DNA of 64,000 nt. It comes from Thermoanaerobaculia bacterium (GTDB lineage: Bacteria > Acidobacteriota > Thermoanaerobaculia > Gp7-AA8). The notes beneath the pieces were generated by a model. The model did not search any database. It saw only the letters and a list, made by a program, of their open reading frames with translations, and was not told where the DNA came from. The position numbers and the translations under genes are program-made. Positions 2,807 through 59,347 of the stretch are shown in pieces. Numbering within the stretch: position 1 is the stretch's first letter; each line of letters opens with the position of its first letter. The stretch is from the NCBI GenBank assembly GCA_035544735.1, contig DATKCD010000013.1:3412-67411 (forward strand), read 5' to 3'.

Positions 2807-3257
2807 GGGTCAGTCCTCCTCGGGCCGCTCCATCGGAGCGGGCGGTGAGCTCCCGGGCGCTCGGGTCGCGCCGGGTCGGGCGATGATCGCGCGCCGGTCA
2901 GTGGTGAAGCGACCGGGTGCGATCACGCCATACGGCGGAAGACGGCCGCCGCCACGGAACGTGACGCCCTGGGCGCTTTCTCTCGAAGCAACGGACTCCG
3001 GTTCCCGGACGTGCAACATCGACCATGAGCATGAAACCCACCTCCCACCCGCGCCGTTCGGCGCGGAGACCACGAAGCTCGGGCAATGCAGCGCCACATC
3101 TCTCCCGGATCGACACGAAGAGCGTGAAAGGAAGGCGACGAAACGGGAGGTCGCTGGAGGAGCGGCAGGCGGCCCCTGCGAGTCCCGCCGGCTGCGGGAA
3201 CCAGCCACTCCCCCCCGAAGACGAATGCGAACGAATCGATGGATCTAGGATACACCC

Positions 3258-3512
3258 GTCTGGAGCGTCTGGAGCGTCTTGGGCGTCTGGAGCGTCTTGG
3301 GCGTCTTGGGCGTCTGGAGCGTCTTGGGCGTCTGGAGCGTCTTGGGCGTCTTGGATCGGTGATACGCCAGAGTCAGAATGCAGAATGCAGAATGCAGAAT
3401 GCAGAATGCAGAATGCAGAATGCAGAAAGATGCTGGCTCACCTCCGGACTTTCGCAACTCTTCAGACACTCCTTGACGCCCTGGACACTCGAGACGCCCG
3501 AGACGCCGCAGC
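3258..3512. repeat. Composite inverted tandem-repeat element A
   Basis: Direct array of the 9-bp unit GCGTCTKGR, about 11 copies (3258-3354). Then CAGAATG heptamer x7 plus CAGAAAG (3374-3429). Then about 4 reverse-complement 9-mers GACGCCNNG (3474-3512). The element ends at the stop codon of the anti-sigma gene. Confidence 0.85.
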
Positions 3513-5294: not shown

Positions 5295-5750
5295 ATGGCT
5301 CGCTATCAGGTCGAAGAGTACGTCCGGTGGGAGGACATCGATGCCGCCGGCATCATCAACTACCAGGCCTATCTCCGGTTCTTCGGCCTCGCGGAGGCGG
5401 AGCTGTTCCGGTCGGCGGGGCTGAGCTACCGCTATCTGTTCGACGTCCTTCACCTCTGGCTCCCGCGCGTCCGGGTGGAGTGCGACTTCCACGTGCCGGT
5501 CACCCTCGACGAGCTGCTGGTAGTCGATGCCTTCTTCGGGAAGATCGGGCGGACCTCGATTCATCTGCAGTTCGAAGTGCGGCGGAAGAGCGACCCGGGA
5601 ACGATCGTCGCAACGGGGAAGTACGTTCTGGTGGCCGTGCGGCAGGGGGAATTCGCACCGGTCGCCGTGCCCGAGGACGTTCGAAACCGGATCGCGCCGT
5701 TCGTGGAGACGACGTCTCCGCGCGGGCGGGACGACCCGAACGGGAGCTGA
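5295..5750 (+). CDS. Hotdog-fold acyl-CoA thioesterase (4HBT/YbgC-like)
   Basis: Start refined to MARYQVEEYVRWEDIDAAGIINYQAYLRFF. Typical 4HBT N-terminal strand and helix. Confidence 0.7.
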   Translation: MARYQVEEYVRWEDIDAAGIINYQAYLRFFGLAEAELFRSAGLSYRYLFDVLHLWLPRVRVECDFHVPVTLDELLVVDAFFGKIGRTSIHLQFEVRRKSDPGTIVATGKYVLVAVRQGEFAPVAVPEDVRNRIAPFVETTSPRGRDDPNGS

Positions 5751-6429: not shown

Positions 6430-6669
6430 CCGGGGCGTCTGGAGCGTCTGGAGCGTCTAGGGCGTCTTGGGCGTCTTGGGCGTCTAGGGCGTCTCGGGCG
6501 TCTTGGGCGTCTTGGGCGTCTTGGGCGTCTTGGGCGCTCGTCAATAGAACGCGGGACGTAGCAGGTAGAACGTAGAGAGCCTGACGGATCCGCAGACGAT
6601 CTGGACGCCGCAGACGCCGACGCTCCAGACGCTCCAGACGCTCGAGACGCCCTAGACGCCCTAGACGCC
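6430..6669. repeat. Inverted 9-bp tandem-repeat element B
   Basis: Forward GCGTCTNGN array of about 12 copies (6433-6536). Loop with TAGAACG x3. Reverse-complement array of about 8 copies (6596-6669). It spans exactly from the PilZ-gene stop to the murB stop, and the last unit CTAGACGCC contains the murB stop. Confidence 0.85.
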
Positions 6670-18830: not shown

Positions 18831-19313
18831 TCAGTCCCCGGCGCAGCGGGGACCGAGGATGGGGCGGTCGCCGCGACGCTGCGCCCGGCGCTCGCGGAAC
18901 TGCTCGTACTTCTCTTTCTGCCCGGGGGTGAGCAGCGCGACGAACTGCGCCTCCCCCTCGCTGCGGATGGCGCAGATCTGGTCACCGATCTCGTGACTGG
19001 CGATGACGAGCCGGCCGATCGCCTCGGCGCTCAGGCTCCCGCCGTCGATCTCGGCTCGGATCGCCTCGCGGTTCGCGCGCCGTTGCGCGGCGAGCGGTTC
19101 GATCGCCGTCCGCGTCGCCTCCCGAATCGCCTTCGACTGGGCGATCTGCTCATCGGTCAGCTCGAGAAATGAGGCGAGCCTCTCGCCCCCGCCCGACCCG
19201 GGCCCGCCATGCGGGCGCCGCGCCCCCGGACGCCCCGGCCCCTGCGCGAGAGCCGCCATCGTCACGGCGAGGATTGCAATGCTGGAGAATGTCGCGATTC
19301 GTACTCTGGTCAT
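18831..19313 (-). CDS. Periplasmic Spy/CpxP-family (LTXXQ) stress protein
   Basis: Start refined to MTRVRIATFSS. Signal peptide. LTDEQ and LTPGQ motifs. Confidence 0.65.
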   Translation of the reverse strand: MTRVRIATFSSIAILAVTMAALAQGPGRPGARRPHGGPGSGGGERLASFLELTDEQIAQSKAIREATRTAIEPLAAQRRANREAIRAEIDGGSLSAEAIGRLVIASHEIGDQICAIRSEGEAQFVALLTPGQKEKYEQFRERRAQRRGDRPILGPRCAGD

Positions 19314-19457
19314 GGTCGATCTCCTCGTCGATTGGACGCCGAGGGCGGCCGCGCGTTTACCCCGTCGAGTCGGAGAAGTCGGATCGAACCGTCCGAACGA
19401 GATCGCGTCCCAACCATCCCGTCGGTCCGGTTTCGGCTCTCTGGTACTCTTGCGCGC

Positions 19458-19841
19458 ATGAACGACAAGCCGAAGACGGGAGCGATCGTCTGGACGGATC
19501 TGACCGTCCCGGATGCCGACGCGATCCGCGACTTCTATTCGAGCGTAGTCGGATGGCGCCCTGAAGCGGTCGACATGGGCGGCTACAGCGACTACAACAT
19601 GGCCGGCGCGAACGGCGAGCCGGCGGCGGGAGTCTGCTGGGCTCGCGGGAGCAACGCCGACCTTCCGGCCCAGTGGCTCGTCTACGTCACGGTCGCCGAT
19701 CTCGACGCGAGCCTGGCTGAGTGCTCGAAGCGCGGCGGGGACCTCGTCGCCGGGCCGAAGTCGATGGGAACGCACCGCTACGCCGTCATCCGCGATCCCG
19801 CCGGCGCGGTCTGCGCCCTCATCGAGCCCGCCGGGGAGTGA
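19458..19841 (+). CDS. VOC-family (glyoxalase/bleomycin-resistance fold) protein
   Basis: Start refined to MNDKPKTGAIVWTDLTV. Single-module VOC pattern. Confidence 0.65.
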   Translation: MNDKPKTGAIVWTDLTVPDADAIRDFYSSVVGWRPEAVDMGGYSDYNMAGANGEPAAGVCWARGSNADLPAQWLVYVTVADLDASLAECSKRGGDLVAGPKSMGTHRYAVIRDPAGAVCALIEPAGE

Positions 19842-19894
19842 GGCGAAACGGAGCGTGAAGACCGGAGGTTCGTGAGAGGGCGAGCTTCGAGGAG

Positions 19895-20445
19895 CGCCGC
19901 TTCGCGGCAAATGCAGAATGCAAAATGTAAAAGAGTGTCGCGATAGTTCGGGCGGTCAGTGCGCTCCCGAATGATCATGACCCGGAAGGCTTCTCACGGA
20001 ATCGGGGGCCGAGTCGTAGGAGTCCGCCGGCCGCAAGGCCGGCCCCTCTCCCGGTGGGAGAGGGTGCCGAGCGAAGCGAGGCGGGTGAGGGGCGCGGGCG
20101 GTGACGGAGTGACCGTACGCACGACGGACGAAGCGGAGCAACTGCGCGCGCCGCGAGCTTCGCGCGAGGCGAGCGGGCGGAGAATCCCCTCACCCGCCTG
20201 CGCCTCCCTTCGGTCGGCTCCGGCACCCTCTCCCAGAGGGAGAGGGGCGTCTCGCGCAGCCTGAGCCGAGTGCGAAAGGGACCTCATGCCACGGAGTCAG
20301 ATCGAGAAGGCGCTGCGCATGCGCGGACGTGCCGAGGCGAAGGAAAGTCATCACACTCGAGCGCGCTGACCGCCGGGAACCAGCGTGACGTCCTTTTACA
20401 TTTTGCATTTTGCATTCTGCATTCTGCATTTGCCGCGAAGCGGCG
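19895..20445. repeat. MITE-like element E
   Basis: Left end CGCCGCTTCGCGGCAAATGCAGAATGCAAAATGTAAAAG. The right end is its reverse complement with two extra heptamer units. The core has nested palindromes: CCCTCTCCCGGTGGGAGAGGG(TGCC) at 20040-20065 pairs with (GGCA)CCCTCTCCCAGAGGGAGAGGG at 20222-20250, and GCGAGGCGGGTGAGGGGCG pairs with CGCCCCTCACCCGCCTGCGC. No plausible ORF inside. Confidence 0.7.
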
Positions 20446-20482
20446 TTCCCGTACCGCCTCCCTCCTCCACAACCCGGAGGGG

Positions 20483-22165
<1,683 letters not shown>

Positions 22166-26715: not shown

Positions 26716-27144
26716 GAGCGTCTGGGGCGTCTGGAGCGTCTGGGGCGTCTGGAGCGTCTTGTGCGTCTAGGGCGTCTTGTGCGTCTTGGGCGTCTTGTGC
26801 GTCTCGGGCGTCTTGTGCGTCTAGGGCGTCTTGTGCGTCTTGTGCGTCTTGAGCGTCTAGGGCGTCTTGTGCGTCTTGAGCGTCTGGAGCGTCTAGGGCG
26901 TCTTGTGCGTCTTGAGCGTCTTGAGCGTCTGGAGCGTCTGGAGCGTTTTGAGCGTCTGGAGCGTCTGGACCATCTTGGGCGTCTGGCGCGGCACGGCCCG
27001 GTGCAGGTGAATCGATTCCAGACGCACGAGGAGCACGAGGCGCCCCAGACCCCCTAGACGCACAAGACGCTCTAGACGCTCTAGACGCCCTAGACGCCCT
27101 AGACGCCCTAGACGCACAAGACGCACAAGACGCTCAAGACGCCC
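26716..27144. repeat. Inverted 9-bp tandem-repeat element C (largest copy)
   Basis: About 30 direct GCGTCTNGN units (26716-26990). 60-bp spacer. About 10 reverse-complement units (27050-27144). Runs from the DUF2007 stop to the terC stop. Confidence 0.9.
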
Positions 27145-44422: not shown

Positions 44423-45292
44423 TCAGTTTTCCGACGCACGGCGCGCTCCCTCCGCTCCGAGCACCCCGCACCACCACTCTCCTTTCGATGCCTCTTCGAC
44501 GACGTTCAGTCCGGTGAGCCGTGCGGCGGCGACGACTTCGTCGCGGTACGGAAGCATGATCCCGCTCACGATCGCCCGTCCGCCGGAGGCGAGCATGGCG
44601 GCGAGGCGGGGAAGATTGGGGACGATCACGTCGGGCAGGATGTTCATCGTCACGAGATCGAAGCGGGCGGAGGGGGCGAGGGCGTCGATCGGCCCGATGA
44701 AGAATTCGATCCGGCCCGGGGGGACCTGGTTGCGCTCGAGGTTCTTCGGGACGATCTCCCACGTCACGGGATCGTCGTCGAAGGCGAAGACGCGCGCGGC
44801 GCCGAGACGGAACATCCCGATCGCGAGGATTCCACTCCCCGTTCCGACGTCGAGACCGCGGCGCTCGACCATCTCGATCGTCTCGAGCATCTCGAGGCAG
44901 AGCGCAGTCGACTCGTGCGAGCCCGTCCCGAACGCCCGCTCCTGAGGAATTACGATCGGATCGCGTCCCGGCTCGCGCGGCAGCAGCGAAGCGTCCGGAG
45001 CCACCACGAACCGCCGGCCGATGAAGAGCGGCTCGAGCGACTGCCGGTACAGCTCCAGCCAGTCCTTCCGTTCGCGGTCCTGCTCCTCGAGCTCCAGCCC
45101 CTCGACCTCTCCCAGCACGGCGCGCGCTTCGGCACGCTCCTCCGCCGAGTCGAACCAGCACGCCACGACCGTCCGCCCTCCCCGCTCCCCGATCTCGCAC
45201 CCGCGGCAGCTCGTCAGGAACAGCAGCCCCTCCACGCGATCATCGAGATCCGTCCGCGGCTCGTAGACGATCTCGAGAACAAAGTCGCGCAT
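44423..45292 (-). CDS. prmA: Ribosomal protein L11 methyltransferase
   Basis: Start refined to MRDFVLEI. SAM motif LDVGTGSGILAI and TMNIL. The upstream part of the listed ORF (KTLKTLKT...) is a translated repeat. Confidence 0.85.
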   Translation of the reverse strand: MRDFVLEIVYEPRTDLDDRVEGLLFLTSCRGCEIGERGGRTVVACWFDSAEERAEARAVLGEVEGLELEEQDRERKDWLELYRQSLEPLFIGRRFVVAPDASLLPREPGRDPIVIPQERAFGTGSHESTALCLEMLETIEMVERRGLDVGTGSGILAIGMFRLGAARVFAFDDDPVTWEIVPKNLERNQVPPGRIEFFIGPIDALAPSARFDLVTMNILPDVIVPNLPRLAAMLASGGRAIVSGIMLPYRDEVVAAARLTGLNVVEEASKGEWWCGVLGAEGARRASEN

Positions 45293-45738
45293 GGGCGTCT
45301 TGGGCGTCTTGGGCGTCTTGGGCGTCCTGGGCGTCTGGAGCGTCCTGGGCGTCTTGGGCGTCTTGAGCGTCTTGAGCGTCTTGAGCGTCTTGAGCGTCTT
45401 GAGCGTCTTGAGCGTCGAGTATCGATTCACGTCGAAGATCCGGACCGTCCCCTGCCGTCGGCCGCACCGGGTCGGCCCGAGAGCCCGAGGAGTGAGGAGC
45501 AGGATCGTTCTATCTTCTACGTTCTACGTTCTACGTTCTATGTTCTGCGTTCAAGAAGATCTACAGAGGCTCCAGACGCTCCAGACGCTCCAGACGCTCC
45601 AGACGCTCCAGACGCTCCAGACGCTCCAGACGCTCCAGACGCCCTAGACGCTCCAGACGCCCTAGACGCCCTAGACGCCCTAGACGCTCAAGACGCCCTA
45701 GACGCTCCAGACGCCCTGGACGCCCAAGACGCTCAAGA
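45293..45738. repeat. Inverted 9-bp tandem-repeat element D
   Basis: About 14 direct GCGTCTNGN units (45293-45416). Unique spacer. ACGTTCT-type heptamer x5-6 (45511-45556). About 19 reverse-complement units (45565-45738) that cover the dnaJ stop. Confidence 0.9.
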
Positions 45739-51372: not shown

Positions 51373-51510
51373 TCCGGGCAAATGCAAAATGCACAATGCA
51401 AAATAATGCAAAATGGACAATCCAAAAAGGAGCCGACGACCCTCGACCGTCGCCGACCGATTCTGGCTGCTTCTCTTTGGATTGTGCATCGTGCAGTTTG
51501 CATTCGGCCG
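51373..51510. repeat. Heptamer-array hairpin element F
   Basis: Left arm CCTCCGGGCAAATGCAAAATGCACAATGCAAAATAATGCAAAATGGACAATCCAAAAAG. Right arm is its imperfect reverse complement (CTTTGGATTGTGCATCGTGCAGTTTGCATTCGGCCGGAGG). 37-bp loop. Confidence 0.75.
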
Positions 51511-59226: not shown

Positions 59227-59347
59227 GGCATTGATGATTGATGATTGATGATTGATGATTGACGGCTCGATCATCGAGCATCAATCATAGATCATCAATC
59301 AAAAATGCCTTTCAATCATCAATCATAGATCATAGATCATCAATGCC
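59227..59347. repeat. TGATTGA-heptamer inverted-repeat element G
   Basis: GGCATTGA(TGATTGA)x4...central palindrome GCTCGATCATCGAGC...TCAATCA/TAGATCA units...TCATCAATGCC. Terminal inverted repeats GGCATTGATGA/TCATCAATGCC. The right repeat contains the ATG (59343-59345) of the next gene. Confidence 0.85.

Follow-up and report, generated by a model that had tools for sequence, protein, structure and literature searches.

Between two convergent genes of an uncultured Thermoanaerobaculia bacterium (Acidobacteriota) lies a stretch of highly symmetrical DNA, and the question it raises is whether it represents a mobile element, an RNA gene or something else. The window analyzed here, a 64-kb stretch of a metagenome-assembled genome (MAG) with a GC content of 67%, carries a VOC/glyoxalase-family gene and glnS (glutaminyl-tRNA synthetase), whose stop codons face each other across a spacer of 641 bp. 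Of this spacer, 559 bp belong to the element considered here, which is non-coding and 551-559 bp in size. A preliminary description of positions 19895-20445 had offered two interpretations, namely a miniature inverted-repeat transposable element (MITE) and a structured non-coding RNA gene. The spacer consists of three nested palindromic layers that form one compound repeat, and it is very probably neither a single MITE nor a single RNA gene. We give about even chances to the proposal that this compound repeat acts as a 3'-end RNA hairpin for both convergent mRNAs.

The layers are arranged in the following order from left to right (position, strand, feature and basis of the assignment):

19891-19908, no strand: left GC clamp with the 13-nt mini-hairpin GCCGC-TTC-GCGGC (19896-19908), from the sequence and the outer inverted repeat; GCTTCGC/GCGAAGC lies at 19899-19905.
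19909-19933, plus strand: left heptamer array, the 5' arm of the bracket, reading AAATGCAG AATGCAA AATGTAA AAG (3.4 units), from Tandem Repeats Finder, the pattern search and inverted repeats.
19934-19981, no strand: left arm of the second-tier imperfect inverted repeat, unique to the locus, from inverted repeats and the arm alignment.
19982-20041, no strand: left asymmetric spacer with the local hairpin CCGGCCGCAAGGCCGG (20027-20042), from weak symmetry in the arm alignment, the fold and a chance-level Rfam match.
20044-20091, plus strand: left BoxC/PIT/TM-like motif, CCCTCTCCC-GGT-GGGAGAGGG, an 18-nt loop with a GCGAAGC mini-hairpin, then GGGTGAGGG, from a regular-expression scan, the alignment, plasmid BLAST and PMC4666352.
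20093-20185, no strand: central loop of the nest, holding small local hairpins, one of them on GCTTCGC at 20157-20163, from folds and 7-mer positions.
20187-20246, minus strand: right BoxC/PIT/TM-like motif, CCCTCTCCC-TCT-GGGAGAGGG, a 30-nt loop, then GGGTGAGGG, the inverted partner of 20044-20091, from the regular-expression scan, inverted repeats and the alignment.
20249-20346, no strand: right asymmetric spacer, without a counterpart elsewhere, from the arm alignment and BLAST against 1.5 Mb of related and viral loci.
20347-20392, no strand: right arm of the second-tier inverted repeat, from inverted repeats and the arm alignment.
20393-20431, minus strand: right heptamer array, the 3' arm of the bracket, reading on the minus strand AAATGCAG AATGCAG AATGCAA AATGCAA AATGTAA AAG (5.4 units), from Tandem Repeats Finder, the pattern search and the arm alignment.
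20432-20449, no strand: right GC clamp with the mini-hairpin GCCGC-GAA-GCGGC (20432-20444), from the sequence and the outer inverted repeat; GCGAAGC lies at 20435-20441.

The outermost layer is a bracket of heptamer arrays, in which positions 19891-19932 pair with 20408-20449 (42 nt, 93%). When the left half is aligned with the reverse complement of the right half, the arms CGCCGCTTCGCGGC-AAATGCAG-AATGCAA-AATGTAA-AAG become identical once a 14-nt gap is allowed, the gap being one AATGCAG and one AATGCAA surplus unit on the right arm. At 19895-20445 the sequence matches the preliminary description, and the gapped alignment agrees with its account of a terminal inverted repeat that is perfect save for two extra heptamers on the right. 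Tandem Repeats Finder places 3.4 units at 19909-19932 and 5.4 units at 20394-20431, and the unit variants follow the same mirrored order in both arms (CAG, CAA, TAA, from outside to inside). The 7-mer GCGAAGC/GCTTCGC, which forms an unusually stable DNA mini-hairpin, occurs four times within the element on alternating strands (19899-19905, 20071-20077, 20157-20163 and 20435-20441), including both end clamps and the second loop of the left BoxC/PIT/TM-like motif. The whole 64 kb holds 43 occurrences, and by our own Poisson estimate the element is enriched about 11-fold.

Inside the bracket, an intermediate tier that had gone unlisted before pairs 19934-19981 with 20347-20392 at about 85%, and the mismatches between its arms, checked by eye, show no G:U strand bias. 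A comparison with 1.5 Mb of related and viral loci finds no homologue of the two stretches that separate the bracket from the innermost layer (19934-20041 and 20249-20392). Folded as RNA and compared with shuffled sequences, the region has a minimum free energy of -342 kcal/mol on the plus strand (z -11.4) and -323.8 kcal/mol on the minus strand (z -14.2), and the minimum-free-energy structure is multibranched. Equal folding of the two strands is to be expected of a DNA palindrome.

The innermost layer contains the second long-range stem, which is real, with limits slightly different from those first proposed: 20042-20069 pairs with 20221-20248 (28 nt, 93%) and 20079-20092 with 20186-20199 (14 nt, 100%). 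Both local palindromes of the form CTCTCCC-N-GGGAGAG are found at 20044-20064 and 20226-20246, while the string quoted for the right-hand partner needs correction, since it reads AATCCCCTCACCCGCC... (also written AATCCCCTCACCCGCCTGCGC) and not CGCCCCTCACCC....

Plasmid BLAST of the core returns matches of about 85% in unannotated DNA of Sphingobium, Azospirillum and Phyllobacterium replicons, and the same composite palindrome is present in the Sphingobium and Azospirillum regions that were read and in L052, the locus of a relative with 67% GlnS identity. The blocks of the core are those of the BoxC/PIT/TM_ECO family, an intrastrand-triplex motif with the consensus CCCTCNCCC N3-6 GGGNGAGGG N3 GGGNGAGGG that occurs 3610 times in 262 proteobacterial genomes and, in E. 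coli, always lies in intergenic regions, with inverted pairs at 5 of 18 sites (Holder et al. 2015, PMC4666352). When eleven arms are aligned, two E. coli copies among them, the three blocks prove conserved, and those of the element are identical to the TM_ECO blocks. In the element, the first half of the motif (the C-block CCCTCNCCC, a 3-6-nt loop and the G-block GGGNGAGGG) is present at 20044-20064 on the plus strand and at 20246-20226 on the minus strand. The second half departs from the consensus: the second GGGNGAGGG-type block is present, as GGGTGAGGG, but follows after 18 nt on the left and 30 nt on the right in place of a 3-nt loop. The core therefore resembles BoxC/PIT/TM in the three defining blocks and their order (CCCTCTCCC, a 3-nt loop, GGGAGAGGG, then GGGTGAGGG), in its strictly intergenic siting between convergent genes and in its inverted pairing through the 28-nt and 14-nt stems. 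It differs in the expanded second loop with its GCGAAGC-type mini-hairpin, any triplex with such a loop being putative, and in its host, which belongs to Acidobacteriota rather than to the proteobacteria in which TM_ECO is known. Second loops of 16-34 nt are shared by the window, L052 and the alphaproteobacterial copies, those of Sphingobium and Azospirillum included, in the eleven-arm alignment, usually with a GCGAAGC-type mini-hairpin, and L001, a close relative, carries a canonical short-loop TM pair within its own bracket. The published search restricted loops to 1-6 nt (PMC4666352), and a long-loop form would have escaped it. Judged by its sequence, the core is a long-loop, hairpin-bearing variant of the BoxC/PIT/TM motif in an acidobacterial host. 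Strings resembling CCCTCTCCC at 23.9-24.6 kb were considered as further motifs and set aside as coding-region coincidences.

The non-coding nature of the spacer is supported. Its flanking genes are those named earlier, with the VOC stop at 19841 and the stop of the minus-strand glnS at 20483 according to the ORF (open reading frame) list and Pfam:

19209-19841, plus strand: VOC/glyoxalase-family gene (Pfam PF00903 and PF18029, ORF list), with its stop 49 nt ahead of the element.
20483-22165, minus strand: glnS, glutaminyl-tRNA synthetase (Pfam PF00749, PF03950 and PF20974), with its stop 33 nt off the element.

The five ORFs within the element (61-101 aa) are what 67% GC DNA is expected to yield. 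None has a Pfam match, and the concatenated six-frame translation of the element finds no match among 5.8 billion proteins, a weak negative since copies must be called as ORFs to be seen. The statement that the core lacks a plausible ORF holds accordingly, as does the view of the region as non-coding, strongly palindromic and built of repeats.

A single 551-bp non-autonomous MITE with terminal inverted repeats of about 40 bp, mobilized in trans, would account for the inverted termini (42 nt, 93%; perfect with the 14-nt indel), the lack of an ORF, and a size below about 600 bp strictly between convergent genes. Known small MITEs such as Correia/NEMIS and ERIC are likewise non-coding, with terminal inverted repeats and long RNA hairpins; they are also multicopy, with conserved interiors and target-site duplications. 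The element is like them in size, inverted termini and hairpin folding, and unlike them in that no target-site duplication and no second core copy is found in the sequence searched. No direct repeat of 2-10 nt is common to the two flanks, ...GCTTCGA(GGAG) and (TTCC)CGTACCG..., so that the check for duplications at the termini suggested in the preliminary description comes out negative. No second copy of the 455-bp core is present in the 64-kb window, the only part of the source MAG covered at the DNA level, in the 1.5 Mb of related and viral loci or, as a called ORF, among 5.8 billion proteins. A genome-wide search with the terminus, likewise proposed at the outset and made here with 21 nt, yields in 185,579 species genomes (the source MAG evidently not among them) only two unrelated, chance-like matches and none in related genomes; one is an Acidaminococcales coding region and the other a different tandem hairpin repeat in a Kiritimatiellae MAG. 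The supposed terminal repeats are tandem arrays of a heptamer found across the genome and are not specific to this element; they bracket many unrelated cargos, and the interior resolves into separable repeat families. Some heptamer-plus-cargo composites are multicopy in the phage contig L121, which speaks for a MITE. On balance, a single MITE is very unlikely.

As a side observation on the second terminus match, the Kiritimatiellae MAG, from goat abomasum, contains at L005 720-870 tandem repeats of about 46 nt with GC hairpins followed by AAATGAC, and the unit with GCCGCTTCGCGGCAAATGCAG is the one with 21-nt identity to the element terminus; this may be chance or a common mini-hairpin module.

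The other early interpretation, that of a structured non-coding RNA gene bearing a terminal hairpin of its own, draws on the very low folding energy of both strands and on the multibranched structure. The foldability of both strands is, however, the property of a DNA palindrome noted above, and the sole conserved part is the BoxC/TM DNA repeat; the rest of the element has no homologue, and covariation is therefore not demonstrable. Rfam gives no match at gathering score in the window, and with the threshold relaxed to E<=10 the region has only chance-level matches (E >=1.7). ARAGORN reports no tRNA or tmRNA in the region, and a promoter scan finds no promoter-like site. The core had been called cloverleaf-like: it is indeed structured, but as a nest of inverted repeats rather than as a cloverleaf. 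An RNA gene can be regarded as extremely improbable. Three further classes, CRISPR, integron attC and a coding tripeptide repeat, were rejected on the grounds that the units are 7-nt tandem repeats, glnS is no cassette, and the arrays lie outside ORFs and form inverted pairs.

If the arms are not the ends of one transposon, the question becomes where else such arrays occur. In the window, the pattern AATGCARAATGCA (<=2 mismatches) has 16 matches against 0.3 expected from shuffles, and the AATGCAR family itself occupies four sites (3374, 19909, 20393 and 51380). Two features outside the main element belong to it:

51373-51510, no strand: element F, a second bracket with an AATGCAA-type arm, about 45 nt of cargo and a TTGCATT-type arm, between convergent ORFs (sequence, pattern search; fold -71.4 kcal/mol, z -5.8).
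3374-3427, plus strand: a single array of (CAGAATG) x7.7 at 100% identity in the loop of a 9-mer inverted-array hairpin (Tandem Repeats Finder, pattern search, sequence).

The family resemblance to element F noted in the preliminary description is borne out, the region being a hairpin of the same AATGCAR heptamer, and so is the suggestion that the same termini can enclose different cargo: inverted AATGCAR/ATTGCAG arrays surround 10 to about 1030 nt of unrelated DNA in element F, L001 4140-4352, L003 1681-2486 and viral contigs. The polarity of the bracket reads (AATGCAR)n...(YTGCATT)n. At least four of the seven array sites in the window lie between convergent ORFs and start 0-90 nt past a stop, as read by hand against the ORF list. 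The gene context of the arrays was read by hand, a crude caller based on GC at third codon positions having mis-called several genes.

Other arrays of the same window differ in unit. Inverted 9-mer arrays at 3257-3507, 6433-6669, 26716-27144 and 45295-45738, of the form (GCGTCTTGG)n then (CCAAGACGC)n with up to 30 + 12 units, occupy entire intergenic spacers from the stop codon on, and one of them abuts the ATG of the next minus-strand gene (CAT on the plus strand, 45290-45292). Heptamer arrays lie inside the loops of three of these 9-mer hairpins (CAGAATG x7.7 at 3374-3427, TAGAACG x4.6 at 6545-6576 and CGTTCTA x6.7 at 45506-45552). The TAGAACG and CGTTCTA arrays are reverse complements of each other, and such arrays nested in arrays represent the converse of the main element. 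A further hairpin at 59230-59344, (ATTGATG)4.7...(CATCAAT-type)n, fills the space between the stop of a 1746-aa ORF (59226) and the next ATG (59343).

Relatives of the source genome place the heptamer arrays in a longer perspective. The GlnS protein is 100% identical to an annotated Thermoanaerobaculia (Acidobacteriota) MAG protein, and the relatives that follow stand at about 81%; synteny near glnS varies between relatives and is broken on both sides, with the nearest relatives at about 80% GlnS identity. A related array follows the glnS stop directly in five of six close relatives at this level. The form is (ATTGCAG)2.7...(CAATCTG)3-4 around about 160 nt in L001 and L002, (TTTCAGA/TTGCAGA)4.5 in L003, and a CACAGATT hairpin in L004, while L087 has (GATCGCG)2.7 and a remnant, GAATCTGCGA; L088 alone differs, with another palindrome after the stop. 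A downstream promoter-proximal block, GTAAACGC...GTCCAATCG, is kept in L001, L003 and L087, whereas the interior of the bracket is unrelated. At further intergenic sites each genome employs its own unit again (five sites in L003, two in L004). In L003 1681-2486 inverted arrays surround five tandem GTCATCC-type palindromes, and in L003 7165-7370 and L001 5620-5700 arrays flank classical hairpin-plus-T-run terminators. L001 and L002 are two independent assemblies of one soil population that differ at six places in 8.1 kb, and three of these differences, at 5654-5663, fall within one 35-nt array, namely two substitutions and an 8-nt insertion of about one unit. Several such arrays are also present in the relative L092, and the metagenomic GlnS relatives at 62-75% identity, among the matches listed, are mostly without such elements.

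Upstream of glnS, L087 1625-1757 shows (GTTCTCA)4...(TGAGAAC)3 around a conserved promoter-like block, TTGTAAAGT. L001 has only (CCGAGAA)3 directly ahead of the glnS ATG (2421-2442), and the window carries the promoter-like block TTGTAGAC (~22210) upstream of glnS without arrays there.

The reuse of a genome's own unit across loci and the persistence of the position after glnS would also be expected if the arrays were DNA or RNA binding sites for a trans-acting protein that co-evolves with the unit and marks intergenic boundaries, in the manner of the REP/RAYT transposase or of iterons and their binding proteins. The strict unit sequence and polarity, and the same units in phages, fit such sites as well. 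A spacing of 7 bp, however, places successive sites on different faces of the DNA helix, many units coexist in one genome (AATGCAR, ATTGATG, TAGAACG and the 9-mers), and no candidate protein has been identified. A dedicated binding system of this kind therefore appears improbable.

The arrays are not restricted to cellular genomes. In IMG/VR, 89 stretches match the 20-nt pattern AATGCARAATGCARAATGCA, against about one expected by chance (own estimate), and many of the matching contigs have 56-66% GC with several arrays apiece. L142 and L121 are tailed-phage structural operons with portal, major head, tail-completion and tape-measure genes. Intergenic hairpins of the form (AATGCAG)4, a 10-17-nt loop and (CTGCATT)3-4 occur in L142 and L161, while in L121 and L158 the arrays start at the stop codon (gagTAAATGCAGAATG...) and are followed by multicopy palindromic units. 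Larger cargo is enclosed by other viral brackets: 127-128 nt in L168/L176, 165-166 nt in L110, 269-270 nt in L153 and 1031 nt in L098. Within the L153 cargo lie palindromes of the GTCATTCC type together with a TM-like motif whose loop is a GCGAAGC hairpin. ATTGCAG arrays add 15 viral stretches, with hairpins in contigs of 68-70% GC. A comparison of the capsid protein with isolated phages and a protein database was uninformative on the host of the heptamer-bearing phages.

Two further observations concern these viral contigs. In the structural operon of L121 (1280-1400, 4780-5160 and 10770-11700), arrays that begin at stop codons precede tandem units, each about 100 nt long, with GTAGGGGCGG...CCGCCCCTAC as their boundaries; the array-plus-cargo composite has at least five copies in 14 kb. 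In addition, ATTGATG arrays are present in 19 viral-contig stretches.

What such a structure might do at the ends of two convergent genes can be approached through hairpins of known effect. REP hairpins act as 3' stabilizers of the mRNA upstream of them, and in phage T7 long intercistronic RNA duplexes are processed by RNase III, leaving protective 3' hairpins. The phage (AATGCAG)4-loop-(CTGCATT)4 hairpins between structural genes look like those of T7, as a functional analogy only, since the two have no sequence relation. By comparison among relatives, the heptamer hairpin downstream of glnS would be old; its arms would gain and lose units by slipped-strand mispairing yet stay complementary, and further palindromic repeats, the TM pair included, would have gathered in the center of the hairpin as a palindrome within a palindrome. 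A transcript from either gene would then contain an A-rich arm, the GC-rich core and a U-rich arm (CUUUUACAUUUUGCAUU...), and pairing of the arms would form a 38-bp duplex closing a hairpin of about -340 kcal/mol. We infer that the two convergent mRNAs share this hairpin as the mark of their 3' ends. The duplex, of a size that suits a double-stranded RNA-specific ribonuclease, may serve as an RNase III-type processing site and exonuclease barrier that leaves a protective 3' hairpin, possibly with a weak bidirectional terminator role, and no role as a gene or transposon would be expected.

The same anatomy can be explained without any cell function, as neutral or selfish DNA in which a heptamer foldback spreads or slips, serves as a landing pad for other palindromes, and accumulates after stop codons, where such DNA is tolerated, the TM pair adding local instability. 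Highly variable cargo and variable unit numbers agree with this view, as do the differing synteny around glnS and the published link of TM elements to local genome rearrangement and instability (PMC4666352). An RNA-level role is favored over pure junk because of the hairpins at many gene junctions in compact phage structural operons, the sense bias of single arrays after stops, and the retention of a post-glnS array in all but one of six relatives with protein identities of about 80%; perfectly complementary arms with mirrored unit variants likewise speak against a functionless origin. The bias in question amounts to 24 sense against 6 antisense among single arrays that follow a long ORF on the same strand, no more than 40 nt past its stop. 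For pairs, the order X..rcX (a unit array followed by its reverse complement) is found 11 times and rcX..X twice, both exceptions pairing arms of different neighboring arrays, 603 and 1045 nt apart.

Several points weigh against the 3'-end hairpin. The orientation counts just given derive from crude ORF calls on partly related contigs and are suggestive only. A constant polarity is expected of any selfish or dispersing palindromic unit too, because a palindrome reads the same both ways. The sense fold beats the antisense fold in five of six co-directional hairpins, by 1-9 kcal/mol, which is not significant. No intrinsic terminator, in the sense of a short GC-rich hairpin with a 3-8-nt loop and a U-tract right behind it, is found in 19700-20600 on either strand, and the long-range stem is followed by only a moderately U-rich tract, UUUUACAUUUUGCAUU. 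BoxC/PIT elements had neither promoter nor terminator activity in earlier E. coli assays, as these are cited in PMC4666352. The logic of an A-tract and a U-tract does not accommodate the inverted 9-mer arrays of this genome, which are GC-rich. Heptamer arrays are also dispensable, since 18 kb of the relative L091 contain none. Given these points, a functionless compound repeat is a possibility of real if minor weight, and a 3'-end hairpin remains the reading to which we give even odds.

The relation of the bracket to known repeats depends on the level at which it is viewed. Cyanobacterial STRR heptamers were reportedly described by Mazel et al. in 1990. Together with the heptanucleotide long simple sequence repeats (LSSR; Mrazek et al. 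2007, as summarized in PMC4679880), they form the class closest to the arms. The window has at least three tandem 7-nt units in non-coding DNA at each of three arrays (3.4 and 5.4 units in the element, 7.7 at 3374-3427), and the unit recurs at many loci with slippage in copy number (four loci in the window, five in L003, the difference between the two arms and the 8-nt insertion in the soil population). The bracket agrees with this class in tandem intergenic 7-nt units, many loci per unit and copy-number slippage, and differs in forming inverted pairs of fixed polarity around other DNA and in the presence of its units in phage operons.

The GGGNATC heptamers of Xanthomonas and Nostoc are also enriched as tandem arrays in non-coding DNA and mostly transcribed, but they are G-rich, show a four-unit preference and are proposed to form G-quadruplexes (Rehm et al. 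2015, PMC4692102), whereas the units here, in a genome of 67% GC, are rich in A and T and have an inverted array as their pairing partner. TAACTGA direct repeats of marine Beggiatoaceae, Cyanobacteria and Bacteroidetes (MacGregor 2015, PMC4679880) resemble the bracket in that one heptamer occupies many intergenic sites across distant lineages, and a post-transcriptional role is suspected for them; they lie just upstream of start codons, and inversion is very rare among them (169 direct sets, 1 indirect), unlike the bracket in both position and inversion. REP/BIME/REPIN sequences (for REPIN, Bertels and Rainey 2011, PMC3116915) share with the element their intergenic imperfect palindromes, post-stop or convergent siting, mosaic structure and genome-own flavor, and they provide the best functional analogy for a 3'-end hairpin, although REPs are single palindromes of 20-40 nt, set in REPINs as inverted doublets and associated with a RAYT transposase, and the bracket is made of tandem heptamers.

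The arms are accordingly a member of the heptanucleotide simple-sequence repeat class (LSSR, STRR, GGGNATC, TAACTGA) with added properties, and the element as a whole is not categorically new. The properties for which no description was found are the inverted pairs of fixed polarity that bracket other DNA, the genome-specific units and the sharing with phages; searches for the AATGCAR and ATTGCAG strings and for the Thermoanaerobaculia lineage gave no match in the searchable literature. A more far-reaching idea, which we put forward tentatively and consider rather unlikely, is that inverted short-tandem-repeat brackets constitute a system of punctuation, so far undescribed, used by GC-rich bacteria of soil and sediment and by their phages, or else a new class of foldback mobile element shared by host and phage. 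As punctuation, a genome-specific 7-nt code would stand on the sense strand after stops and be mirrored before the next gene; a host factor, either a double-stranded RNA nuclease or a dedicated binding protein, would read it and define mRNA ends, and the hairpin centers would double as landing pads for BoxC/TM-type and other palindromes.

Should brackets indeed mark mRNA ends, they would offer a simple sequence signal for the annotation of transcript boundaries, and they could perhaps help to assign phages to their hosts among uncultured bacteria rich in GC. In genome annotation it is better to mask regions of this kind as repeats than to call them as ORFs or novel RNAs, and the bracket family merits a proper survey. 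The core has a significance of its own: BoxC/PIT/TM has been studied for 30 years without an assigned function, and a motif known from proteobacteria now appears, in a long-loop form, in Acidobacteriota, and the puzzling conservation of these exact 9-nt blocks thereby spans a wider phylogenetic range.

Minor observations extend the surroundings in which TM-like motifs and palindromic cargo occur. The window holds no DUF559 gene. In the viral contig L184, a DUF559 gene (Vsr-like endonuclease fold; 219-560 on the minus strand, Pfam E = 1.3e-34) has direct TM/BoxC-like composites on both sides, at 105-215 and 598-705, each made of two TM/BoxC-like motifs. This single case may represent an autonomous partner of TM elements or a homing context for them. 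Palindromes of the type GTCATCC(C/T)GAGCG...GGGATGAC, about 150-190 bp long, are multicopy within short contigs (L088 1-264 and 3801-3990; L003 1790-2460), and GTCATCC-type palindromes recur as cargo beside heptamer arrays in the viral contigs L121 and L153. In Sphingobium, a similar GTCATCCC...GGGATGAC palindrome adjoins the TM pair (L089 480-570).

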